In this document: positions 1-8,270 of the stretch, piece after piece
Layout of the letters: each line of letters starts with the position of its first letter
Numbering within the stretch: position 1 is the first letter of the stretch
Assembly: GCF_035285525.1 (NCBI RefSeq)
Contig: NZ_JAYKGW010000152.1
Location: 1-8,270, forward strand
Source of the DNA: Okeania sp.
Lineage (GTDB): Bacteria > Cyanobacteriota > Cyanobacteriia > Cyanobacteriales > Microcoleaceae
DNA: 8,270 nucleotides
Reading direction: 5' to 3'
The notes under the pieces: model-generated
Told to the model about the DNA's origin: nothing
Databases searched by the model: none
The model's input: only the letters and a program-made list of their open reading frames with translations
Program-made: the position numbers and the translations under genes

Positions 1-936
1 ATTGAAGACTGGCGAACTGATGAAGTTTGGCTATATTTAATGCAGTGGGAAAATCCTTGGGGAAATAGTAATCAAGATTTACTAGCAATGTATCGAGGTG
101 CAACGGAAGATAATGAATGTCCGTTAGTAGTTGATACTTCTACTCCTAGTTGTGGAAGTTCTCGGTTTGGATGCTGGGTTTGCACTTTAGTAGATACTGA
201 GAAGTTTATGTCAGTAATGATTCAAAATGATGAAGAAAAAGAATGGTTACAACCATTAGTAGACTTGCGTAAAGAACTAGATATTTCTGACAGAAATAAA
301 AGAGATTTTCGGAGGATTTGGGGTACAGTTCAACTGTTTGAACGGAAAGTAGATGGTGAAGTTTCTGTGGAACCAATACCAGGTCCTTACAAAAAAGAAT
401 GGCGGGATACTTTACTGAGAAAACTATTAGAAGCTCAAACAAAAATTCGGGAAACTGCTCCAGAAAATCTGCGAGATATTACTCTTATTTCTTTGGAAGA
501 ATTGAGTGAAATTAGACGTATTTGGTTGGAAGAAAAACACGAGTTTGATGATAGTTTACCTCGCATATATGAAGAGGTAACAGGAGAAGAATTTCAAGAT
601 TGTCGTCCTGGTGCAGGAATAAGTCTTTTAGGTAGTGATGAATGGTCTGTTTTAGAAGAAATATGTAATGAGGATGAAATGCACCTTGAACTTATGGCAA
701 AACTATTAGATACAGAACGGCAATATTATATTAAGTCTCACCGATATAGGATTTATGAAAGTCTCGAAAAATGTTTTGAAACAAGTTCTCGTTCTAAGGA
801 AGAAGCTATTCAAAATGCTCATAATAAAAGAGATTTAAAAGAAGCTGTCGAGACAGGAAAAGTGTCAGAGAAAATTAAACAATTAAGTTGGGCAAATATG
901 AAGTTTTCTCGTCAAAGCTCAATAGATAATGAATAA
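1..936 (+). CDS. dndC: DNA phosphorothioation protein DndC (PAPS-reductase-like ATP pyrophosphatase, 4Fe-4S). C-terminal ~311 codons only; the 5' end lies left of the window.
   Basis: Frame 1 is open from nt 1 (IEDWRTDEVWLYL precedes the listed Met at 40), so the ORF is 5'-truncated. It contains the cysteine cluster C-x10-C-x6-C-x2-C (NECPLVVDTSTPSCGSSRFGCWVCT) with the SRFGCWVCT motif I recognise from DndC. A clear DndD lies co-oriented downstream. Stop TAA at 934-936. Confidence 0.88.
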   Translation: MEDWRTDEVWLYLMQWENPWGNSNQDLLAMYRGATEDNECPLVVDTSTPSCGSSRFGCWVCTLVDTEKFMSVMIQNDEEKEWLQPLVDLRKELDISDRNKRDFRRIWGTVQLFERKVDGEVSVEPIPGPYKKEWRDTLLRKLLEAQTKIRETAPENLRDITLISLEELSEIRRIWLEEKHEFDDSLPRIYEEVTGEEFQDCRPGAGISLLGSDEWSVLEEICNEDEMHLELMAKLLDTERQYYIKSHRYRIYESLEKCFETSSRSKEEAIQNAHNKRDLKEAVETGKVSEKIKQLSWANMKFSRQSSIDNE

Positions 937-1090
937 TGAATAATTACTTTTCTCTTTTGATAAATCTCTATTTTTTCCAGTCTGAGTCAGAGGCAAAAAT
1001 TATCTGTTTTTTTAGCAAGAAAATTTGATTTTTCAGATGATGAAAATTTATCTGAAAAACTTATATCTGGAAAACCTCTATTTTCCCAGT

Positions 1091-1157
1091 GGTAGTTCTA
1101 TATATGTAGTTATAAGTTAATGTAAATGATTAGTTCTTAACATTAATGTTGAAAATC
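1091..1157. repeat. Left terminal inverted repeat of the 1.8-kb insertion.
   Basis: Pairs with the reverse complement of 2852-2918 (28/31 outer, 51/67 total). Confidence 0.7.
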
Positions 1158-1167
1158 TTACCGAATA

Positions 1168-1273
1168 ATTAAGGAATGAGAATTAAATAATATCCACAAA
1201 AATTGGCTAGAAGTACCGCACTAAAATGCTCCTGTACAGGAAATCTGGAAGTTAATAAATTCTCATTCCTAAT
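1168..1273. repeat. Small IR-bounded unit (13-bp perfect stem, 73-nt interior).
   Basis: AGGAATGAGAATT at 1172-1184 is the exact reverse complement of AATTCTCATTCCT at 1258-1270. The ATTA/TAAT flanks extend the pairing imperfectly. Confidence 0.55.
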
Positions 1274-1280
1274 AATTAAT

Positions 1281-1521
1281 AATTAGGGTTTGCTGAAAAA
1301 GTCTGATGGTAGAGGTAGGGAGTAGTTAGGAGTCAGGAAAAATAAGAGTTATAAAGGAATTAGTTAGCAGAATTGTCTCTTGATTTTTCTCTAAAGCGCG
1401 AGCTTTTTGTTCTAACTTTTTTAATCTTTTTGACCTAAAAGCTGATACTTTTTTCCAACAAACAAGTTGCTAAAATCTTTATTTTTAAATTCTTTCATAT
1501 TTCTATACGCAAGCCCTAATT
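1281..1521 (+). repeat. MITE-like non-coding module, copy E1 (241 bp), nested inside the 1.8-kb insertion.
   Basis: The left end is AATTAGGGTTTGCTGAAAAAG. The right end reverse-complemented is AATTAGGGCTTGCGTATAGAA (12/13 over the first 13 nt). Internal blocks CTCTTGATTTTTCT, TTTTTGACCTAAAAGCTGATACTTTTTT and ATATTTCTATACGCAAGCCCTAATT are shared with the copies at 4983-5802. Confidence 0.7.
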
Positions 1522-1614
1522 ATTCATTCAACAATTCAGGTTGAAAGCCTCCCTTTATTAGGGAGAAAAATGAAAAATTTTCCTTTGAGTCAATCCCCTT
1601 TTTTCAAGAAGGGG

Positions 1615-1649
1615 TAATTATTAATTATTAATTGTTCATTATTAATTGC
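1615..1649. repeat. Heptanucleotide tandem repeat (TAATTAT)n, 5 units, STRR-like.
   Basis: The units read TAATTAT TAATTAT TAATTGT TCATTAT TAATTGC. The same heptamer array recurs at 5798-5839. Confidence 0.8.
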
Positions 1650-1725
1650 TGAATTCTTTCCTGCTTAAAAATTAAAAAATTATTGTGTAGGCGATCGCCT
1701 TCCGCAAAGCTCCGCTAACGCTGTA

Positions 1726-1731
1726 TATAAT
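1726..1731 (+). promoter_or_regulatory. Candidate -10 box (TATAAT) for the hydrolase gene.
   Basis: A perfect TATAAT lies 26 nt upstream of the ATG at 1757, and a second TATAAT is at 1750-1755. No convincing -35 or Shine-Dalgarno. In AT-rich DNA such hexamers arise by chance. Confidence 0.25.
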
Positions 1732-1756
1732 CAGCTATAAAATTATCAGTATAATT

Positions 1757-2812
1757 ATGTTAAAAAGAACTTCCCTAATTTTTCTTGTTATATCTATATC
1801 TATGTTTACAAGTACGATTTTTATTTACAAGAATAACGCAGCTAAAACAGAATCTTATAAATTTGTACCTTCAAAATCTTATAAATTTGTACCTTCAAAA
1901 TCTTATACATCTCTACCTTCAGAATCTTATAAATCTCTACCTTCAGAATCTTATAAATCTGTACCTTCAGAATCTTATAAATCTGTACCCTCAGAATCTT
2001 ATAAATCTGTACCCTCAGAATCTTATACATTTGTACCTTCAGAATCTTTGAAAGATATAGCAATGAACAGCGGTTTATCTGAAGAAGCTAATATTACAGT
2101 TTGCAACCTCAAAGGACTATGCGAACATCTCAACGGGAATGAACAACTCCTTAGTGTTGCTAGCTTAATGAAGCTACCTATTGCTGTAGCACTTATCGAA
2201 AAAATAACTACAAACAATATAGATATTAACACTCAAATTTATCTAGAACCAGAAAATTTTACTGAAGATAATTCAACCTTAGATGCAGGAAACAATTATA
2301 CTTTAAAAGAACTGTTATCTGAAATGATTATTAATAGTAGTAATATTGCTCCTAATCAATTAATAGATTATTTGAGTCGTAGTTATATCAACCAAGTATT
2401 AGAGGAACAGGATTATAAAATATTAAGAGTCAATTCTAAATTCATAGGTGATTATATTATTCCATATGATATGGGATTCATTCCTAATACTGCAAATAGT
2501 GATGAACTTACTATAATGATGGTCCGTATTTATAGCAATCTTCATTTAACACACTATAAATTATTAGCTACTTTACTTGCTCAACAGCACGATCATGATT
2601 TAGGATTTACTGCATTAGAAAATACTAAAGTTCAATGGATGGGAGAAAAAACAGGTCAAAATGCTGGAGTTCTTGGTACTACTTTGGCTATAAAAGTATC
2701 AGGGGAAATTTATATTATTACTGTAATAGATGATGGAGATTATAGCGAAATAGCCCTTCGCAAATCTATTACCAATATCGCCGATTATATTTTCAAAAAA
2801 GAATCTTTTTGA
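1757..2812 (+). CDS. Exported/membrane-anchored class-A beta-lactamase-fold serine hydrolase with an N-terminal octapeptide repeat linker.
   Basis: The N-terminus is hydrophobic (LIFLVISISMFTSTIFIY), followed by 8 copies of (E/K)SY(K/T)(F/S)(V/L)PS. The three class-A motifs occur in the correct order: S-x-x-K (ASLMKLP, nt 2162-2173), S-D-N equivalent (INSSNIAPNQL) and K-T-G (GEKTGQ). No omega-loop Glu could be assigned by eye. Confidence 0.75.
   Translation: MLKRTSLIFLVISISMFTSTIFIYKNNAAKTESYKFVPSKSYKFVPSKSYTSLPSESYKSLPSESYKSVPSESYKSVPSESYKSVPSESYTFVPSESLKDIAMNSGLSEEANITVCNLKGLCEHLNGNEQLLSVASLMKLPIAVALIEKITTNNIDINTQIYLEPENFTEDNSTLDAGNNYTLKELLSEMIINSSNIAPNQLIDYLSRSYINQVLEEQDYKILRVNSKFIGDYIIPYDMGFIPNTANSDELTIMMVRIYSNLHLTHYKLLATLLAQQHDHDLGFTALENTKVQWMGEKTGQNAGVLGTTLAIKVSGEIYIITVIDDGDYSEIALRKSITNIADYIFKKESF
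1850..2050 (+). repeat. In-frame 24-bp tandem repeat, 8 full units plus a 9-bp partial unit (consensus GAATCTTATAAATCTGTACCTTCA).
   Basis: Unit boundaries fall at 1850, 1874, 1898, 1922, 1946, 1970, 1994, 2018 and 2042. Units differ by only 0-4 nt. The repeat encodes the ESYKSVPS repeats of the 1757-2812 ORF. Confidence 0.95.
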
Positions 2813-2851
2813 TGGCGATATATTCAGACTACTGGTACTTAAACATTTTCT

Positions 2852-2918
2852 GATTTCAGAAATTAATGTCATCACTTAATGGCTTATATTAACATATCAC
2901 TACATATACAGAACTACC
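2852..2918. repeat. Right terminal inverted repeat of the 1.8-kb insertion.
   Basis: Its reverse complement matches 1091-1157 (28/31 outer, 51/67 total). The tip ...ACATATACAGAACTACC ends 70 nt upstream of the dndD ATG. Confidence 0.7.
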
Positions 2919-2988
2919 AAAAAATCAAGTTAATTATCTCGCTAATTTTCTCCCTATTCTCTACTCCGTATTCCCTAAAAAAACTAAA

Positions 2989-4971
2989 ATGATTTTTCTA
3001 GAACTCGTCTTACAAAACTTCGGACCATACTTCGGTAAACAAACAATAAACCTTCGCCCTACTAACACTAACCATCCCCGTCCGATCATCTTATTTGGAG
3101 GTATGAATGGAGGCGGAAAAACTACTCTTTTAGATGCTATTCGTCTGGCACTTTATGGTCATCGTGCCCAATGTTCAACTAGAGGAAATTTAACTTATGG
3201 TGACTTTCTTTCTCAATGCGTAAATCGCAATACTCCTCCTACAGAAAAAACTCGAATTGAATTAGCTTTTGAACATATTCAAGACGACCAAGTTGTAGAA
3301 TATCGTATCGTTCGTACTTGGGAAAAAAATCCGAAAGATGGTAAAGATAATCTAGGAATCCTTGATGGGGAATGGCCTGATTCTTACTTAGCAAATACCT
3401 GGGATGAATATATAGAAAATCTCTTACCTTTGGGAATTTCTAATCTATTTCTTTTTGATGGAGAACAAGTAAAAGAGTTAGCTGAACTAGAAATACCACC
3501 ACCTTCAGTCGTAGATGCAATTCAATCATTATTAGGATTAGAATTAGCCGAACGTTTGGCAGCAGATTTAGATATTTTAGTGACTCGGAAAAAGAAACAA
3601 CTTACTAAGACTAAAGAAATAGCAAATTTAGAAGAAATTGAACAAAAACTTCATCAGCAAAAAACAGATTTGGAAGTTGCTACAAAAAAATTGAAAGATT
3701 TAGAAAAGCAATTAGATAAATCTCAAGAAAAGCAAAAAAAAGCCATGAGAAAATTTGTCTCAGAAGGAGGAAAAATTGCTGCGGAAAAAAGTCAGTTAGA
3801 ACAAGAGTTTAAAGATGTAGAATTGGAAATGGATAATGCTCGTCAAAAAATGGTTGAACTTGCTGGGGGTGCTTTACCTCTAGCTTTAATTTCTCCCCTT
3901 TTGGAACAAGCAAGTTCTCAAGGCGATTTAGAAATTTTACGTCAGGAAGCTGAAATTGCTTTGGATGCTTTTCAGGAAAGAGATAAACGTCTACTTGATT
4001 ATCTGAATAATTTATCTATTCCTATTGATAAAGTTAGTAAAATTGAAGAGTTTCTCAATCAAGAAAATTTGACCCTGAAAGAAGAGATTAATCAAGTTGA
4101 TGAACCTTGGTTATTGGCTGATGAAGAAGCTTTAACTTTATTAGAAAATTTGTTGCGCAATGACATTGAAAATTCTCGGAAAAATGCTCAAGAAAGTTTA
4201 AGTAGTTTGCAAGATTTGGAAGTAGAAATAAATGTTCTGGAAAAACAATTAGCAACCGCAGCATCTCCCGAAGCTTATGAACTTTTAGCAACTGCTTTGG
4301 AAGAAGCGCAAACTGAGTTAGCAAGAGTACAAGTTGCTTGTGAAAATAGTCAACGCGATCGCAAAAATTTGGAGGATGCGATTAATAAAACTAAGAAAGA
4401 ATTGTTTAATTTTACCGACGAAACTATGGAGCGTCAAAATATTCAACATATAATTAATTCTTCTGCCAAAGTCAAGCAAACTTTACAGCTATTTAAAGAT
4501 AAATTAACTGTCAAAAAACTCAATAAATTAGAAATAGAAATTACTGAATGTTTACGTTACCTTTTGCATAAGTCTGACTTAGTTCATCGCATCGCTATTG
4601 ATACTCATAATTTTGCTCTTTCTCTCTATGATAATCAAGGCAAACTTGTTCCTAAACATCGAATATCTGCTGGAGAAAAACAACTTTTAGCAATTTCTTT
4701 TTTATGGGGTTTAGCAAGAGTTTCTGGTAGACGTTTACCTGTGGTTATTGATACACCTTTAGGTAGGTTAGATTCAGAGCATCGGCAAAATTTAGTTGAA
4801 CGTTATTTCCCTGCTGCTAGTCATCAAGTAATTCTCTTATCTACTGATACTGAAGTTGGTAAATTAGAAGTAGAAAATTTGCGTAATTTAGAAGCGATCC
4901 AATACGAATATTTGCTCAAATATGATTCTCAAAAAAATCAAACTAATATCAAAAAAGGTTATTTCTGGTAA
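2989..4971 (+). CDS. dndD: DNA sulfur modification protein DndD (SMC/ABC-like ATPase).
   Basis: The protein is 660 aa. The N-terminus MIFLELVLQNFGPYFGKQTINL plus Walker A GGMNGGGKTT (nt 3097-3126) matches the DndD family start. The middle is a long coiled-coil-like, E/K/L/Q-rich region. The C-terminus has the signature-like ISAGEKQLLAISFLWGLA and the Walker B/D-loop LPVVIDTPLGRLD. The gene lies co-oriented downstream of dndC. Confidence 0.9.
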   Translation: MIFLELVLQNFGPYFGKQTINLRPTNTNHPRPIILFGGMNGGGKTTLLDAIRLALYGHRAQCSTRGNLTYGDFLSQCVNRNTPPTEKTRIELAFEHIQDDQVVEYRIVRTWEKNPKDGKDNLGILDGEWPDSYLANTWDEYIENLLPLGISNLFLFDGEQVKELAELEIPPPSVVDAIQSLLGLELAERLAADLDILVTRKKKQLTKTKEIANLEEIEQKLHQQKTDLEVATKKLKDLEKQLDKSQEKQKKAMRKFVSEGGKIAAEKSQLEQEFKDVELEMDNARQKMVELAGGALPLALISPLLEQASSQGDLEILRQEAEIALDAFQERDKRLLDYLNNLSIPIDKVSKIEEFLNQENLTLKEEINQVDEPWLLADEEALTLLENLLRNDIENSRKNAQESLSSLQDLEVEINVLEKQLATAASPEAYELLATALEEAQTELARVQVACENSQRDRKNLEDAINKTKKELFNFTDETMERQNIQHIINSSAKVKQTLQLFKDKLTVKKLNKLEIEITECLRYLLHKSDLVHRIAIDTHNFALSLYDNQGKLVPKHRISAGEKQLLAISFLWGLARVSGRRLPVVIDTPLGRLDSEHRQNLVERYFPAASHQVILLSTDTEVGKLEVENLRNLEAIQYEYLLKYDSQKNQTNIKKGYFW

Positions 4972-4982
4972 TATAGAACTAC

Positions 4983-5206
4983 TTGAATCGGGAATAGGGA
5001 ACAGGTGCGAATTTCTATTTTTTTATTTACTTTTTGATTTGTCACAACCTATTTAAGATTGCTATATCACCTCTAATTTTTCTGCCCAACTCTTGCCCAA
5101 ATACTAACTTTTTGACTTAGGCAAACATCTGGTACTTTTTTACTGCCTAAAATGACTAAAACCTTTAGATATAAATCCTTTTATATTTCATCAGCAATCC
5201 CTAATT
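4983..5206 (+). repeat. MITE-like module, copy E0. Lacks the canonical left end and abuts the dndD stop.
   Basis: It shares CTCTAATTTTTCTGCC, AAATACTAACTTTTTGAC, CTGGTACTTTTTT and the right end ...CAGCAATCCCTAATT with the other copies. Its last 80 bp are identical to the corresponding part of E2. Confidence 0.6.
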
Positions 5207-5584
5207 ATAGTTTGCTGAAAAAGTCTTTTAGTCCGAGGGAGGAGTCAGAATCTAGCAATTCTGCAATCCAGAAGGAATAGTCATTACAAAAGAGGTAGGA
5301 ATAAGAATTATCTCTTGATTTTCTGTCACAATTAGCCAAAAATACTAATTAGCGTTGGTAATTTAATTGGTGGGATAATTTTTGAATAGGGGTGATTCCC
5401 ATTACTTACTCTAGTTAAATATTTAGAGGTATTAAAAACAGATTACTTTTCAAACTTTATCCCTTGATTTACCAACGCTGACTTTTTAGCTTTCCCGACC
5501 TAAAATCTGGTACTTTTTTACTGCCTAAAATGACTAAAACCTTTAGATATAAATCCTTTTATATTTCATCAGCAATCCCTAATT
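5203..5584 (+). repeat. MITE-like module, copy E2 (382 bp, or 253 bp without the nested insert).
   Basis: The left end is AATTATAGTTTGCTGAAAAAG. The right end reverse-complemented is AATTAGGGATTGCTGATGAAA, which is 17/21 to the E1 left end. It overlaps the neighbouring copies by the shared AATT. Confidence 0.7.
5351..5479. repeat. Nested 129-bp IR-bounded insert inside module E2.
   Basis: AGCGTTGGTAA at 5351-5361 is the exact reverse complement of TTACCAACGCT at 5469-5479 (12/13 with one more base). The insert interrupts E2 just after the conserved AAATACTAAYT block, ahead of the TTTTTGAC-type block that follows it directly in E0. Confidence 0.6.
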
Positions 5585-5802
5585 ATAGTTTGCTGAAAAA
5601 GCAGAGTGTGGGAACTGTAGTCCGGGTGGGAATAAAAATAATTAGGAGGAATAATTGTTCCTTAATTTTTCTGCCATAGCTAGCCTGAAATGCTAACTAA
5701 TTGAAGTGTTTTTTGCTGAAATAAGTACACTTTTTTTGACCCAAAAAAGGTAAGTACCTTTATGTATCAATGCTTTGATATTTCCATACGGAAACCCTAA
5801 TT
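5581..5802 (+). repeat. MITE-like module, copy E3 (222 bp).
   Basis: The left end AATTATAGTTTGCTGAAAAAG is identical to that of E2. The right end is ...CATACGGAAACCCTAATT. Internal blocks CCTTAATTTTTCTGCC, AAATGCTAACT and TTTTTTGACCCAAAA are shared with the other copies. Confidence 0.7.
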
Positions 5803-5839
5803 ACTAATTGTTAATTATTAATTATTAATTATTGATTTA
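5798..5839. repeat. Heptanucleotide tandem repeat (TAATTAY)n, 5 units plus a degenerate sixth.
   Basis: The units read TAATTAC TAATTGT TAATTAT TAATTAT TAATTAT TGATTTA. The array starts within the right end of E3 and ends 13 nt before the ATG at 5852. Confidence 0.8.
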
Positions 5840-5851
5840 ACCTATTTTTTT

Positions 5852-6532
5852 ATGTCAAAAAATAGAATTGCTAAAACTTCATTATTTTTTATAATATTTG
5901 TAGTTATTTGCTTGAATATTGGTTACTTTACTCCGAGAAATTTGAGTAATAATTCTGATGATTTGAACTTCTCAAATAAGACCATACCCATATATGTTTA
6001 TAATATGGGTATTCATACAGATATTCTACTTCCAGTTCAAACCAAAATTTGGGATTGGCAACAACATTTAAACTTAAAATTAATAGCTAATCCATCAATT
6101 TCCATAAATTATCTAGCTTTTGGTTTAGGCGATAGAGCTTATTTTCTAGAAACTTATAATCAGACATCATTACCAATCGTGACAGCTTTGAAAGCTCTAT
6201 TCCTACCAACACCTTCTGCAATCAGAGTATTAGCTTATCAAAATATTCCTCAAAAATATGAAATTAAATGTGTTATGATTAGTCAATCTAATTATCTAAT
6301 TCTAACCAAATTTATCAATAATTCTTTTCAATTTGATGCCCAAAATAATAGAAAAATTATCAAAATAGACCCTAATTATAAAGTTGGTTTTTATGCAGGA
6401 AAAGATACCTATTCAATTTTAAGAGCTTGTAATGATTGGACAGCAGAAGCTCTGAGATTAGCAGGAATAACAACTCCTCTATGGTCAGGACTTTCTAGCT
6501 CAATTATGTATCATCTTAATGATAACTGCTAA
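5852..6532 (+). CDS. Membrane-anchored DUF2459/TIGR02117-like hypothetical protein.
   Basis: The protein is 226 aa with an N-terminal TM helix (LFFIIFVVICLNIGYF). The motifs GIHTDILLP, AFGLGDRAYF and a C-terminal ACNDWTAEALRLAG resemble what I recall of the TIGR02117 (DUF2459) family. This is a motif-level call only. Confidence 0.55.
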   Translation: MSKNRIAKTSLFFIIFVVICLNIGYFTPRNLSNNSDDLNFSNKTIPIYVYNMGIHTDILLPVQTKIWDWQQHLNLKLIANPSISINYLAFGLGDRAYFLETYNQTSLPIVTALKALFLPTPSAIRVLAYQNIPQKYEIKCVMISQSNYLILTKFINNSFQFDAQNNRKIIKIDPNYKVGFYAGKDTYSILRACNDWTAEALRLAGITTPLWSGLSSSIMYHLNDNC

Positions 6533-6696
6533 TAACTGCGATCGCTTTCTTAAATTCAAAATTCAAAAGTTCGAAATTTGTAGGTGTGTGACGGCATCCT
6601 TTTTTCAATTTTGGGGAAACTCCAGAAATTTTTCCTCACGCACCTTTTTTTGGGATTGGTAGACGATTTATAGTGCGTTACTGACACGCCTAAAAA

Positions 6697-6800
6697 TGTA
6701 GGTTGGGTTGTTGCTTGCTAACCCGTAGCGGTACGATAGTGAAACTCAACAAAGCCATACTATTATTGGTGTTCGGTTTCGTTCCTTAACCCAATCTACA
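6697..6800. repeat. Degenerate copy of the cyanobacterial GTAGGTTGGGTT...AACCCAACCTAC inverted-repeat family.
   Basis: TGTAGGTTGGGTT at 6697-6709 matches the reverse complement of AACCCAATCTACA at 6788-6800 (12/13). The internal GGTTTCGTTCCTTAACCCAATCTACA resembles the common TTGGGTTTCGTTCCTCAACCCAACCTAC repeat of filamentous cyanobacteria. Confidence 0.6.
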
Positions 6801-6854
6801 GCTACTTCATCAAATGCCTATTCCTGATGGTTGGTTAAATGAAACCTAATCTCT

Positions 6855-6907
6855 CAGCCCCCCCCTTCCCAGAAGCGCTTTGGGGGAGAGGTCTTAACCT
6901 ATGTTCT
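6855..6907 (+). repeat. G/C-rich dispersed repeat, copy 1 (CAGCCCCCCCCTTCCCAGAAGCGCTTTGGGGGAGAGGTCTTAACCTATGTTCT).
   Basis: It recurs in direct orientation at 6939-7028 with an internal insertion. Confidence 0.8.
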
Positions 6908-6938
6908 GAAGCTAGAGCCGCTATAAAAGCTAACCCCC

Positions 6939-7028
6939 CAGCCCCCTTCCCAGAAGCGCCTTGGGGGAGAATAACTCCCCTCTCAAAAGTAGGAGAGGGG
7001 TTGGGGGAGAGGTCTTAACCTATGTTCT
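6939..7028 (+). repeat. G/C-rich dispersed repeat, copy 2, interrupted by a 30-bp hairpin element flanked by a 10-bp duplication.
   Basis: CAGCCCCCTTCCCAGAAGCGCCTTGGGGGAGA is followed by ATAACTCCCCTCTCAAAAGTAGGAGAGGGG, then a second TTGGGGGAGA, then GGTCTTAACCTATGTTCT. The insert has an 8-bp stem (CCCCTCTC/GAGAGGGG). Confidence 0.8.
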
Positions 7029-7165
7029 TCCCTGCAACACCAGACTTGAATAAATTATTTCCCTAAAAAAAGAGCCACTATTTTCCCACAATACTTATTT
7101 AATTAGATAATATAACAACTTTTTCTGCTTGTCAAGTGCGACCGCTATCAAATCCGTAAACCAAA

Positions 7166-7193
7166 GTAGGGACGTTCCATGGAACGTCCCTAC
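7166..7193. repeat. Perfect 28-bp palindrome GTAGGGACGTTCCATGGAACGTCCCTAC (REP-like).
   Basis: The sequence is self-complementary over all 28 nt, with CCATGG at the centre. It lies about 95 nt beyond the alsS-like stop in the convergent intergenic region. Confidence 0.9.
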
Positions 7194-7231
7194 AGGATGG
7201 TGAGGTACACTTAAAAATTAACCTCTATCTT

Positions 7232-7272
7232 TGTAACACAACCTTCCAGGTTGTTACAGCCTTCAAGGCTGT
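7232..7272 (-). terminator. Two adjacent, similar hairpins just downstream of the acetolactate synthase stop. Possible intrinsic terminator.
   Basis: On the minus strand the hairpins read ACAGCC-TTGAA-GGCTGT, then AACAACCT-GGA-AGGTTGTGTT (2-nt bulge). Both are built on CCTKGAAGG. An AATTTTTAA tract follows only about 20 nt later, so this is not a canonical stem plus U-run. Confidence 0.35.
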
Positions 7273-7286
7273 GTCACCACTCATTA

Positions 7287-8270
7287 CTAAATCGCACAAC
7301 TCAAACCACCTGACTTTTTAGTAAAACGAGCATTCTCCCGATAATCAACCCGACAATCTATCACCGCAGGAACATCTTGAGCAAGCGCCTCCTTCAAAAT
7401 AGGAACTAAATCCGCAGCAGACTCTACTCGATAACCCTTCAAACCGAAACTCTCTGCAAATTTCACAAAATCAGGATTGCCAAACTTAATAAAAGAAGAC
7501 GTACCAAAATGATTTTCCTGCTTCCACTCAATCAAACCATAACCGCCATCATTAAAAATCAAAGTCACAAAAGCAGTACCCACCCGCAAAGCAGTTTCCA
7601 ACTCTTGACAGTTCATCATAAACCCACCATCTCCTGTTACTGCGACAACCTTGCGGTCAGGATAAACCAACTTGGCAGCGATCGCTCCCGGAATCGCAAT
7701 ACCCATCGCCGCAAAACCATTAGAAATCAAACAAGTATTAGGGCGATCGCAATGATAATGTCTAGCAATCCACATTTTATGGGCACCAACATCAGAAATC
7801 ACAATATCCTCCGCACCCATAACCTGGCGTAAATCATAAATTAGTTTTTGAGGTTTAATCGGAAACCCATCATCCTTACCATATTCCTCATATTCAGAGC
7901 GCATATTTTTTCTAATTTCTGATATACTCGGACTTAATTTATTTATGCGCTCCGAACGTCGTAAAATTTCATTCAAAGAATCAGAAATATCTCCAATTAT
8001 TTCTGCAATTGGAATATAACTGCTATCAATCTCCGCATATTTTTCCCCCACATGAATAATCGGAATTTCCCCTTGAGGATTCCATTTTTTCGGTGAATAT
8101 TCAATCATATCGTAACCAATTGCAATCACCAAATCTGTTTCATCAAAAGCACAACTAATATAATCGCGTTGTTGTAAACCAGTCGTCCATAAAGACAAAG
8201 GATGAGTATAAGGTATCACACCTTTACCCATAAAAGTATTAGCAACCGGAATATTTAATTGTGTAGCAAA
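7287..8270 (-). CDS. alsS: ThDP-dependent acetolactate synthase, catabolic AlsS type. C-terminal ~327 codons only; the 5' end lies right of the window.
   Basis: The minus-strand frame stays open to nt 8270 (FATQLNIPVANTF precedes the listed Met). The ThDP-binding motif GDGGFMMNCQELETALRVGTAFVTLIFNDGGYG lies at about nt 7548-7634. The C-terminal FGNPDFVKFAESFGLKGYRVES...VIDCRVDYRENARF closely parallels Bacillus AlsS as I remember it (FGNIDIVKYAESFGATGLRVES...IIDVPVDYSDN). Stop TAG at 7287-7289. Confidence 0.8.
   Translation of the reverse strand, partial: FATQLNIPVANTFMGKGVIPYTHPLSLWTTGLQQRDYISCAFDETDLVIAIGYDMIEYSPKKWNPQGEIPIIHVGEKYAEIDSSYIPIAEIIGDISDSLNEILRRSERINKLSPSISEIRKNMRSEYEEYGKDDGFPIKPQKLIYDLRQVMGAEDIVISDVGAHKMWIARHYHCDRPNTCLISNGFAAMGIAIPGAIAAKLVYPDRKVVAVTGDGGFMMNCQELETALRVGTAFVTLIFNDGGYGLIEWKQENHFGTSSFIKFGNPDFVKFAESFGLKGYRVESAADLVPILKEALAQDVPAVIDCRVDYRENARFTKKSGGLSCAI

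Follow-up and report, generated by a model that had tools for sequence, protein, structure and literature searches.

An 8,270-nt stretch of DNA from the cyanobacterium Okeania sp. (contig NZ_JAYKGW010000152.1; hereafter, the window) carries short repeated modules with inverted ends in the neighborhood of its dnd genes, several of which abut head to tail. What these modules are, how they came to be stacked, and whether they serve the genes that they precede are the questions raised by this locus. We consider it probable, at roughly 85%, that they are copies of a nonautonomous MITE, an internal-deletion derivative of an ISCwa2-like insertion sequence (IS) of the IS5 family, and that they became stacked through regeneration of the target TAATTA.

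Copies in the window

A previous reading of the sequence alone described four co-oriented copies that share conserved blocks and inverted ends. The blocks and the ends are robust: a repeat search of the window recovered both the common blocks (D6, D8-D10, and D15) and the inverted ends (I17, I24, and I25). The end motif TAATTAGGGTTTGCTGA, at 3 or fewer mismatches, occurs at seven sites (1280, 5202, and 5580 on the plus strand and 1506, 5191, 5569, and 5787 on the minus strand) versus 0.06 expected by chance, and all seven coincide exactly with proposed module ends. Seven such sites were found in 0 of 200 shuffled windows. The count of four copies fared less well. When the window was searched with a profile HMM of 245 nt, built from the window copies and 11 copies of other genomes, two copies (E1 and E3) proved to be full length, while E0 proved fragmentary and E2 composite. 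The features of the array and of E1 are as follows.

1280-1522, plus strand: E1, full-length MITE copy of 243 nt (nhmmer, model 1-244, E = 2e-51)
1280-1285 and 1517-1522: TAATTA ends of E1
1280-1296 and 1506-1522: left and right TIRs of E1, with 0 and 3 mismatches to the end motif, respectively
5072-5207, plus strand: E0, 3' fragment of the MITE (nhmmer, model 104-244, E = 5.9e-22)
5124-5223, plus strand: junction tract between E0 and E2, 100 nt (repeat family D6, two copies, 99% identical)
5202-5350, plus strand: left part of E2 (nhmmer, model 1-141, E = 2.7e-24)
About 5349-5481, no strand: foreign small repeat nested in E2, boundaries approximate; the MITE model breaks exactly there
5474-5585, plus strand: right part of E2 (nhmmer, model 132-244, E = 1.5e-21)
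5502-5601, plus strand: junction tract between E2 and E3, 100 nt, second copy of D6 (repeat search)
5580-5803, plus strand: E3, full-length MITE copy of 224 nt (nhmmer, model 1-244, E = 2.6e-38)
5787-5803: right TIR of E3, matching the end motif
5798-5837, no strand: heptamer array (TAATTAT)n that abuts E3 on the right (TRF, period 7, 5.7 copies)

Over its full length, E1 is about 70% identical (blastn) to copies in seven of the loci that we fetched for comparison (L028, L034, L005, L064, L009, L054, and L066). E0 closes with a right TIR and TAATTA (5202-5207), has lost two fifths of the element on the left, and matches the right halves of many copies (blastn). E2 (5202-5585) is a single copy that a foreign repeat interrupts, and it measures 384 nt because of that interruption. 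Its left end is the variant TAATTATAGTTTGCTGA, with 2 mismatches to the end motif, and its right part closes with a right TIR (1 mismatch) and TAATTA (5580-5585). The left end of E3 is the variant TAATTATAG..., as in E2. The nested repeat entered the MITE family block AAATACTAA^CTTTTT; it has 11-nt inverted ends of its own, read off the sequence as AGCGTTGGTAA (5351-5361) and TTACCAACGCT (5469-5479), and it has homologues elsewhere, with positions 5364-5486 being 83% identical to L006:3439-3561 and 78% identical to L056:3680-3795. No ORF of 50 aa or more was found in 1280-1522 or 4972-5851.

Neighboring copies had been said to overlap by the palindrome AATT. The overlap is real, and what they have in common is the 6-nt palindrome TAATTA, inside which AATT lies, at 5202-5207 and again at 5580-5585.

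A family of dispersed cyanobacterial repeats

The modules are MITE-like, as the sequence-only reading proposed: they are short, noncoding units with inverted repeats at their ends, and their copies are numerous and dispersed. When reference genomes were scanned with the left end, at least 120 stretches matched, so the modules are not confined to the window locus; 117 of the 120 matches listed are cyanobacterial, with Okeania (59), Dapis (13), Trichodesmium (10), Crocosphaera (8), and Microcystis (5) among them. Over the fetched loci, the profile HMM identified at least 187 pieces and at least 72 full copies in unrelated flanks, and these family counts, like those of the scan, refer to reference-genome loci rather than to the source genome itself. 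Among the matches listed, the 72 full copies range from 199 to 289 nt (median, 254), and 0 of 93 near-full copies overlap a long ORF. The ends of the family consensus are TAATTAGGGTTTGCTGA ... TCAGCAAGCCCTAATTA, and the purine-rich stretch of the modules is a variable heptamer microsatellite.

ISCwa2 as the probable parent type

In Crocosphaera watsonii, the same ends enclose an element of 1709 bp, TAATTAGGGTTTGCTGAA ... TTCAGCAAACCCTAATTA, which encodes a 508-aa transposase with matches to DDE_Tnp_1_2, DUF772, and the NCBIfam IS5 model NF033578 (E = 2.9e-148). The NCBI name of this protein is "IS5-like element ISCwa2 family transposase," and its relatives are named ISCysp16, ISCysp17, and ISCysp18; these names in the NCBI annotation follow ISfinder. 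Elements of the ISCwa2 type are present in both C. watsonii and C. chwakensis.

The likeness to the window family is extensive. The left end of the IS is identical to the MITE consensus for 23 of 23 nt, beyond which homology on the left ceases, and the right termini are near-identical. A local alignment of the right 140 nt of the MITE consensus with the final 200 nt of ISCwa2 carries the homology of the right subterminal regions about 110 nt inward, into the part of the IS that separates the start codon of the transposase from the right end. Both elements have TAATTA on both flanks, and copies of ISCwa2 also abut head to tail with one common TAATTA. The two differ in that ISCwa2 spans 1.7 kb and has a gene for its own DDE transposase of 508 aa, whereas the window modules are noncoding, measure 224-243 bp, and have the purine-rich heptamer microsatellite where ISCwa2 has its gene. 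Judged by these alignments, the modules are best classed as a MITE carrying the ends of ISCwa2, a catalogued cyanobacterial IS of the IS5 family, and, its termini being those of that IS, the novelty once claimed for the family fails the criterion that the sequence-only reading itself had set.

The TIRs of about 23 bp (TAATTAGGGTTTGCTGAAAAAGT) would be the sites at which such an IS is recognized by its DDE transposase, and the copies would therefore move in trans, by means of a full-length relative; we infer such mobilization in the source genome. The ISCwa2 transposase, compared by tblastn with all fetched loci, matched only Crocosphaera and a Cyanothece fragment. About 0.8 Mb of fetched Okeania, Dapis, and Trichodesmium loci held no ISCwa2-type transposase, and no protein of these three genera was among the best 120 transposase homologues.

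TAATTA as a target that is probably regenerated

Both ends read TAATTA in 50 of 61 scored copies; the hexamer is a palindrome and so could be a duplication, a terminus, or both. A single informative copy, L100:1730-1982, is flanked on either side by the nonpalindromic TAAGTA, in direct orientation. One event would account for that pair if at least 4 bp were duplicated, and this one copy favors such a duplication. In a paralogous comparison, the MITE of L005 breaks, at TAATTA, a member of the R2 family of dispersed repeats, which is also represented beside E1, and the repeat is uninterrupted in L042 and L026. Moreover, 19 of the 72 full copies (26%) abut an A/T heptamer array, versus 1.4% of random positions; arrays of the heptamer TAATTAT would be insertion hot spots because the target TAATTA recurs in them every 7 nt.

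We propose that the elements target the palindrome TAATTA, part or all of which would be duplicated when they insert, and every copy would therefore be flanked by two fresh targets. A later insertion at a flanking TAATTA would yield two elements with one common TAATTA, and repetition of this step would yield arrays. Self-targeted insertion at the TAATTA terminus, one of two origins suggested for the array by the sequence-only reading, is its best explanation, and junctions that share TAATTA occur elsewhere in both orientations. Tandem pairs with one common TAATTA are found in genomes (L035, L093, L109, and L073), and 32 junctions were found in metagenomes, of which 17 are head to tail and 6 inverted, ISCwa2-ISCwa2 dimers and one three-element array included. 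Whole ISCwa2 copies abut at one TAATTA in L128, L130, and L155. Head-to-tail junctions outnumber inverted ones, by about 12-17 to 6 in metagenomes and 5 to 0 in genomes, and this excess exceeds what random insertion alone predicts. Each of the six inverted junctions, head-to-head or tail-to-tail, has one common TAATTA; because both relative orientations occur at TAATTA-sharing junctions, insertion into a regenerated target is favored.

The second suggested origin, amplification by recombination, would in its strict form derive the array from a single inserted copy, through its tandem duplication in place or through unequal recombination, with no repeated insertion at TAATTA. The head-to-tail excess is what such a process would give, and the window points the same way: the 100-nt tract that covers both junctions is 99% identical between them, and it takes in the left-end variant TAATTATAG, which is found in E2 and E3 and, among the matches listed, in no other copy. 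A recent duplication would leave long identical units, however, whereas E0, E2, and E3 differ at the family level beyond the tract and have unlike interiors. Duplication could not, moreover, create six inverted junctions that share TAATTA, and whole ISCwa2 copies abut at one TAATTA as well. We therefore regard recombination as an improbable sole cause of the array. What survives of the claim is local: beyond the 100-nt tracts, which lie 378 nt apart, the alignment falls to family-level similarity, as a gene-conversion patch would give, and the 99% identity of the tract suggests that local gene conversion or recombination contributed on top of insertion. Under repeated insertion at TAATTA, the subsequent changes would have been the entry of the other small repeat into E2, the loss of the left part of E0, and a gene-conversion patch of about 100 nt that homogenized both junctions.

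Reactive junctions are known from IS30, IS256, and IS911, as (IS)2 dimers or circle junctions. By analogy, the abutted junction of the window family (...CAGCAAGCCC-TAATTA-GGGTTTGCTG...) might be a hyperreactive donor and not only a by-product of the choice of target, with tandem dimers of the MITE or the IS acting as transposition intermediates that seed further copies. We give this idea little credence, and we know of no IS5-family element for which a hyperreactive abutted junction has been shown. Both the surplus of head-to-tail junctions and the existence of ISCwa2-ISCwa2 dimers would fit it, and neither requires it.

Assembly and the dnd neighborhood

The arrangement of the array rests on the assembly of one contig of 8.3 kb, and such repeats are prone to misassembly. 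A dispersed repeat outside the MITE family precedes the array and fills the space that the sequence-only reading had given to the left part of E0.

4990-5067, no strand: dispersed repeat, 91% identical to L006:5776-5852

L006 has three further copies of this repeat, which is also present in L017, L114, and L005; it has no match to the MITE profile HMM. An independent Logan contig of the same dndD locus breaks before any module, at window position 1998, in a coding repeat of the upstream gene, and at 5047, within the 4990-5067 repeat. These breaks, the single contig, and the two copies of the 100-nt repeat 378 nt apart would suit an assembly artifact in which short-read contigs were misjoined via that repeat. 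Against this stand many independent assemblies with the same junction type, three-element arrays included, among them isolate genomes (L035, L093, L109, L073, L137, and L155), and we consider an artifact very unlikely.

An association of the modules with dnd genes had been drawn from their position. The syntenic dnd loci of Dapis, Okeania, and Trichodesmium (T. erythraeum) have no MITE copy, and we rejected the link because these orthologous loci lack the element, which, on this comparison, would not be ancestral to the dnd locus. The loci of dndD orthologues are syntenic with unrelated spacers, and the regions around dndD differ wholesale between genomes. A search via these orthologues found no base-level empty site for the window's own copies, the regions not being alignable base for base.

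Promoters, sRNAs, and RNA structure

Correia-type promoters and tandem sRNA arrays offer models for a functional alternative, likewise raised by the sequence-only reading, in which the modules are promoter- or sRNA-bearing units kept upstream of plus-strand genes to drive or regulate them. In the window, both sites do precede ORFs of the same orientation, a promoter-like match falls within E2 (5478-5506), the fold of E3 is somewhat better than those of its shuffles (z = -2.37), and a hairpin of a T run and an A run recurs in the family. Yet both single-sequence folds are unremarkable (z = -1.26 for E1), promoter-like sites number 18 versus 22.6 expected from shuffles, and the TAAAAT box of the E copies, previously thought to be conserved, reads TAAAAC in the family consensus. 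Searches for RNA genes were equally negative: cmscan of the whole window against Rfam gave 0 matches at E <= 1, a tRNA/tmRNA search of the window found nothing, and RNAalifold predicted 0 consensus pairs for the right halves of 50 copies. The 7-pair hairpin beat column shuffles but not slid controls, its pairing of 71.9% comparing with 82.7% and 80.2% when slid by 1-2 columns, and we rejected it as low-complexity complementarity.

The orientation of neighboring genes, for which crude ORF proxies were used, gave no better support. An apparent bias toward co-oriented upstream genes (52 versus 26, p = 0.004) was discarded since it is confounded by convergent and divergent pairs and the corrected test is not significant: in tandem gene contexts, by the same crude proxies, 22 copies have the same orientation and 12 the opposite (p = 0.12). 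The downstream gene, again a proxy, points the same way as the copy in 39 cases and is convergent with it in 35. The conserved blocks are accounted for by homology to the IS end, and they would be inherited IS end sequence rather than a promoter or an RNA gene. We regard a promoter or sRNA role as most unlikely.

Comparison with other MITEs

The genome of Microcystis aeruginosa NIES-843 contains MaeMITEa-h, of 176-429 bp and in hundreds of copies, as well as ISMae6, an IS5-family element of 1686 bp (Kaneko et al. 2007, PMC2779907). Compared by description only, the MaeMITEs are cyanobacterial MITEs similar in size to the window family. Microcystis genomes also have members of the window family itself, of 224-233 bp and with the same ends (L049, L081, L096, and L097), which differ in their heptamer, GGGGTGT. 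Nezha (Zhou et al. [quoted passage not shown] It, too, is a cyanobacterial MITE with TIRs that match an IS of another species and with trans mobilization inferred alike; by this description only, Nezha is shorter (about 130-170 bp) and belongs to a different IS (PMC3184786). MITEs of about 224 bp are also known from Anabaena PCC 7120. Precedents in unrelated organisms, with unrelated sequences, are a Porphyromonas gingivalis MITE with an internal minisatellite (PMC4596501), for a tandem repeat inside a MITE, and the arrays of MITE-like units with ends matching remote IS elements at Thiohalocapsa DGR loci (PMC10907252), for MITE arrays. Neither PMC4596501 nor PMC10907252 reports a self-regenerating palindromic target. 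Our literature search found no description of the window family under its terminal sequence, ISCwa2, ISCysp16, ISMae6, or MaeMITEa; shorter terminal strings returned, among the matches listed, only unrelated primer sequences, and the text of Pfreundt et al. 2014 makes no mention of MITEs.

Implications for annotation and for arrays

A conspicuous repeat structure is thus explained without a new mechanism, as ordinary though tidy mobile DNA, and an intergenic repeat of Okeania, Dapis, and Trichodesmium-like cyanobacteria is now tied to a catalogued IS type. Such elements break short-read assemblies, and masking them aids both assembly and annotation; their annotation as sRNAs or promoters is unwarranted. 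The long, variable spacers of the dnd cluster in this lineage are probably landing pads for mobile DNA and not part of the phosphorothioation system. More generally, where each insertion remakes a palindromic target on either side of the element, abutted arrays are to be expected, and so, by like reasoning, are hot spots wherever a heptamer containing the target is repeated in tandem.

A second dispersed repeat beside E1

E1 is adjoined by a member of a second dispersed repeat family.

1530-1654, minus strand: R2, with 120 blastn matches in the fetched loci

The best match of R2 is in L120, at 88%. The window copy of R2 contains a pair of short G/C hairpins as well as its own (TAATTAT)n array (1615-1647), and in other genomes R2 is often the host of MITE insertions.

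Repeat modules in the window

The end motif TAATTAGGGTTTGCTGA, with up to three mismatches allowed, occurs at seven sites in the window against 0.06 expected by chance, and all seven fall precisely on the proposed ends of modules E0 to E3, the co-oriented MITE-like repeats (short non-coding transposons). The shared blocks and inverted ends were recovered by both repeat search and alignment. We combined the window copies with 11 full-length relatives in a 245-nt profile, which gave the following matches.

Matches of the module profile in the window
1280-1522: E1, model 1-244, E = 2e-51
5072-5207: E0, model 104-244, E = 5.9e-22
5202-5350: E2, left part, model 1-141, E = 2.7e-24
5474-5585: E2, right part, model 132-244, E = 1.5e-21
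5580-5803: E3, model 1-244, E = 2.6e-38

The end sites and profile matches bear out the repeated modules with inverted ends, but not four complete copies at 4983-5802 and 1281-1521, for E0 is partial and E2 is split. What had been taken as the left part of E0 (4990-5067) belongs to a third repeat family unrelated to the MITE, and between the two E2 pieces lies a different small repeat with its own 11-nt inverted ends and homologues in Trichodesmium contigs. Adjoining window copies have the 6-nt palindrome TAATTA in common.

A cyanobacterial family related to ISCwa2

One genome per species was scanned for the exact pattern TAATTANNGTTTGCTGAAAAAG, which gave at least 120 stretches, all counts being lower bounds. 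Among the matches listed, 117 of 120 were cyanobacterial (Okeania 59, Dapis 13, Trichodesmium 10, Crocosphaera 8, Microcystis 5, and several Nostocales and others); the three non-cyanobacterial matches are presumably near the chance level, which we estimate for a 20-base pattern. Profile search of these loci gave at least 187 pieces and at least 72 full copies. The full copies run from TAATTAGGGTTTGCTGA on the left to TCAGCAAGCCCTAATTA on the right, measure 199-289 nt (median 254; n = 72, among the matches listed), and have flanks unrelated to one another; none of the 93 near-full copies among the matches listed overlaps a long ORF. The purine-rich stretch noted earlier proved to be a heptamer microsatellite of variable length directly after the left end (AGGAGAC, AGGAGTC or GGGAGTA in the Okeania group, GGGGTGT in Microcystis). 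Many copies have small palindromic inserts within it, and together the two account for most of the length variation.

A 1709-bp element of Crocosphaera watsonii WH 8501 opens with the MITE left end, closes with the inverted end, and encodes a 508-aa protein with DDE_Tnp_1_2 and DUF772 domains, which matches the NCBIfam IS5 model NF033578 (E = 2.9e-148) and which NCBI names 'IS5-like element ISCwa2 family transposase'. Its near relatives carry the NCBI names ISCysp16, ISCysp17 and ISCysp18, and many cyanobacterial genera have homologues that are 62-79% identical. Over 23 nt the MITE consensus does not differ from the ISCwa2 left end, and its right ~110 nt align to the ISCwa2 right subterminal region. 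The transposase gene reads inward from the right, which puts this region between the IS end and the start codon of the gene. This homology indicates that the series of conserved blocks in the modules' right half is inherited IS end sequence. MITEs are, in the standard picture, internally deleted insertion sequences mobilized in trans when a full-length relative supplies the transposase; by that picture, the present family would be an internally deleted ISCwa2-like element whose copies would have been moved in trans in the same way.

Named cyanobacterial MITEs include MaeMITEa-h (PMC2779907) and Nezha (PMC3184786); the latter source also lists the ~224-bp MITEs that Wolk et al. 2010 described from Anabaena PCC 7120 and cites thousands more (Lin et al. 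2011). The terminal sequence of the modules did not occur in the literature searched, and the autonomous relatives have ISfinder-type names in NCBI annotation. The family is possibly listed already under another name.

The sequence-only reading had also allowed that the modules are promoter- or sRNA-bearing units, and here nothing speaks in favor of a regulatory role. The entire window had no Rfam match at E <= 1, promoter-like sites in 900-6000 numbered 18 against 22.6 +/- 3.8 in shuffles, and the supposedly conserved, -10-like TAAAAT box reads TAAAAC in the family consensus. Folding gave z = -1.26 for E1 and -2.37 for E3, RNAalifold predicted no pairs on 50 right halves, and a hairpin between the T-run and A-run was paired in 71.9% of cells, against 82.7% and 80.2% with the partner slid by one and two columns. 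Orientation in tandem gene contexts was not significantly biased (22 same versus 12 opposite, p = 0.12; a crude test, with genes called as ORF proxies), nor did gene contexts differ significantly (16 convergent versus 8 divergent, p = 0.15). An initial apparent orientation bias was confounded by gene arrangement and is superseded by the corrected tandem count.

A probable self-regenerating target

TAATTA stands at both sides of 50 of the 61 copies with both ends scorable (among the matches listed). Because it is a palindrome, the duplicated length is not readable from sequence alone, and TA, AATT and TAATTA would each fit. One copy, L100:1730-1982, has the non-palindromic TAAGTA in direct orientation on both sides; one event duplicating 4 bp or more would explain this single pair, whereas a 2-bp duplication would require two independent mutations. 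Copies are strongly enriched beside A/T heptamer arrays, for example (TAATTAT)n, in which the target recurs once per 7 nt: 19 of 72 adjoin one, compared with 1.4% of positions drawn at random from these loci. In the window such arrays lie at 1615-1647 and 5798-5837. At one locus (L005) a MITE copy sits at TAATTA in the heptamer array of R2, a second dispersed repeat family, which is uninterrupted in two others (L042 and L026). This comparison, although paralogous, appears to show an insertion event directly.

With TAATTA as the target, each insertion would leave a perfect target on either flank, and a later insertion there would give ...CCC-TAATTA-GGG..., precisely the junction observed. Four additional tandem pairs with the common 6 nt were found in genome loci (L035, L093, L109, L073), and a metagenome scan for abutted ends yielded 32 contigs. 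Orientation by HMM identified 17 of their junctions as head-to-tail (~12 after near-duplicate removal, and including ISCwa2-ISCwa2 dimers and, in L137, a three-element array) and six as inverted, of which four are head-to-head and two are tail-to-tail. Tandem duplication cannot create an inverted junction, so elements must also insert into the regenerated target; these junctions favor the earlier proposal of self-targeted insertion. Head-to-tail junctions are in moderate excess, for which two or more causes are possible and inseparable here: added duplication, or loss of long palindromes, which are unstable in bacteria. What is mildly instructive is this self-regenerating palindromic target and the arrays it produces.

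The dimers lie on contigs Ga0064014_10031 (L128), Ga0064013_1014 (L130) and Ga0064013_1009 (L155), with complete ISCwa2 copies head to tail around one common TAATTA; in L155 both transposase genes are complete (160-1623 and 1857-3320; junction 1655-1660). These are tandem IS dimers, or possibly assembled circle junctions.

Amplification by recombination, the other earlier proposal, stands only in part. Two 100-nt tracts, one across the E0/E2 junction (5124-5223) and one across the E2/E3 junction (5502-5601), are 99% identical, and the left-end variant TAATTATAG occurs in E2 and E3 and in none of 122 other left ends among the matches listed, a pattern that fits a short gene-conversion patch between homologous junctions. 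Tandem duplication of a whole unit does not fit, since similarity drops to family level on either side of the tract; nor can duplication as sole source yield the inverted junctions found elsewhere.

The dnd neighborhood

Layout of the window
1-936, +: dndC, 3' part
937-1756: spacer with E1
1757-2812, +: beta-lactamase-fold protein gene with eight 24-nt coding repeats
2989-4971, +: dndD
4972-5851: spacer with E0, E2 and E3
5852-6532, +: DUF2459 gene
6533-7286: spacer rich in repeats
7287-8270, -: thiamine-pyrophosphate (TPP) enzyme gene, 3' part

The window is a short contig; a Logan contig assembled independently and carrying this dndD breaks off at window positions 1998 (coding repeat) and 5047 (4990-5067 repeat). 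HIP1 motifs (GCGATCGC) are present, which we take to be consistent with a cyanobacterium. Window DndD shares 91% identity with the proteins of both Dapis sp. BLCC M172 and Okeania sp. SIO3I5 and 85% with that of Trichodesmium erythraeum, which places the source among the marine filamentous cyanobacteria of this group. The dnd neighborhood is syntenic, in the order dndB-dndC-dndD-TPP enzyme, across Dapis BLCC M172, Okeania SIO3I5 and T. erythraeum IMS101. None of these three dnd loci matches the MITE profile, which argues that the window copies are lineage-specific arrivals in dnd spacers. Across the window and the three genomes these spacers are long, variable and full of repeats.

Relative to Dapis BLCC M172, a 1.9-kb insertion (1085-2981) between dndC and dndD replaces 328 nt of spacer and contains E1, R2 and the beta-lactamase-fold gene. 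Its edges are 68-nt inverted repeats (1090-1157 and 2852-2919, 76% complementary, GGTAGTTCTATATATGTAGT...), and the start of the arm motif recurs, inverted, at 4972-4983 (ATATAGAACTAC), immediately 3' of the dndD stop codon. The insertion could be a mobile unit with cargo; a search for further copies of the arms found none. The gene inside has 8.4 in-frame copies of CAGAATCTTATAAATCTGTACCTT near its 5' end (1848-2048, 93% matches), encoding an octapeptide repeat C-terminal of an N-terminal hydrophobic stretch.

No dndE-like gene follows dndD in 4972-6532; its neighbor encodes a DUF2459/TIGR02117 family protein, which the Dapis, Okeania and Trichodesmium loci lack at this place. The first called gene 3' of dndD in Dapis weakly matches TnpB-like Cas12f1-like_TNB. 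The last 80-120 nt of dndD (homologous to window 4849-4971) recur in one to four copies 3' of the gene in the orthologous loci (L122:10011-10132; L123:10026-11239; L124:10055-10283) and not in the window. In a highly transcribed Trichodesmium tandem array, every unit carries a duplicated 3' part of the neighboring gene Tery_0080 (Pfreundt et al. 2014, PMC4143802); the two may be one phenomenon. The T. erythraeum IMS101 dndC-dndD spacer, 2.5 kb with no called genes, holds ~10 tandem units of ~189 nt (L124:5954-7828); a related unit has eight copies in Okeania SIO3I5 (L123:6453-7743) and one or two in the window (962-1084).

Other repeats

R2 (window 1530-1654) has a pair of short G/C hairpins (CCCCTTTTTTCAAGAAGGGG, CTCCCTTTATTAGGGAG) along with a (TAATTAT)n tail, with 120 blastn matches in the loci examined. 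MITE copies often adjoin either end; one R2 end in other genomes, TAATTAAGGTTTAAAGCC, resembles the MITE terminus TAATTAGGGTTTGCTGAA. The small palindromic repeat GTAGGGACGTTCCATGGAACGTCCCTAC (window 7164-7195; also in L094, L011, L033 and L065), nested in other genomes within MITE copies, in their heptamer region (L027, L052, L053), is reminiscent of the very small mobile repeats described from Nostoc. Window 6861-7028 contains local direct repeats of a G/C-rich palindromic unit (CCCCCTTCCCAGAAGCGCYTTGGGGGAGA and TTGGGGGAGAGGTCTTAACCTATGTTCT, twice each), and a related hairpin insert, ACCCACCCCTAACCCCTCCCAGGAGGGGA, breaks the heptamer region in many Okeania MITE copies.
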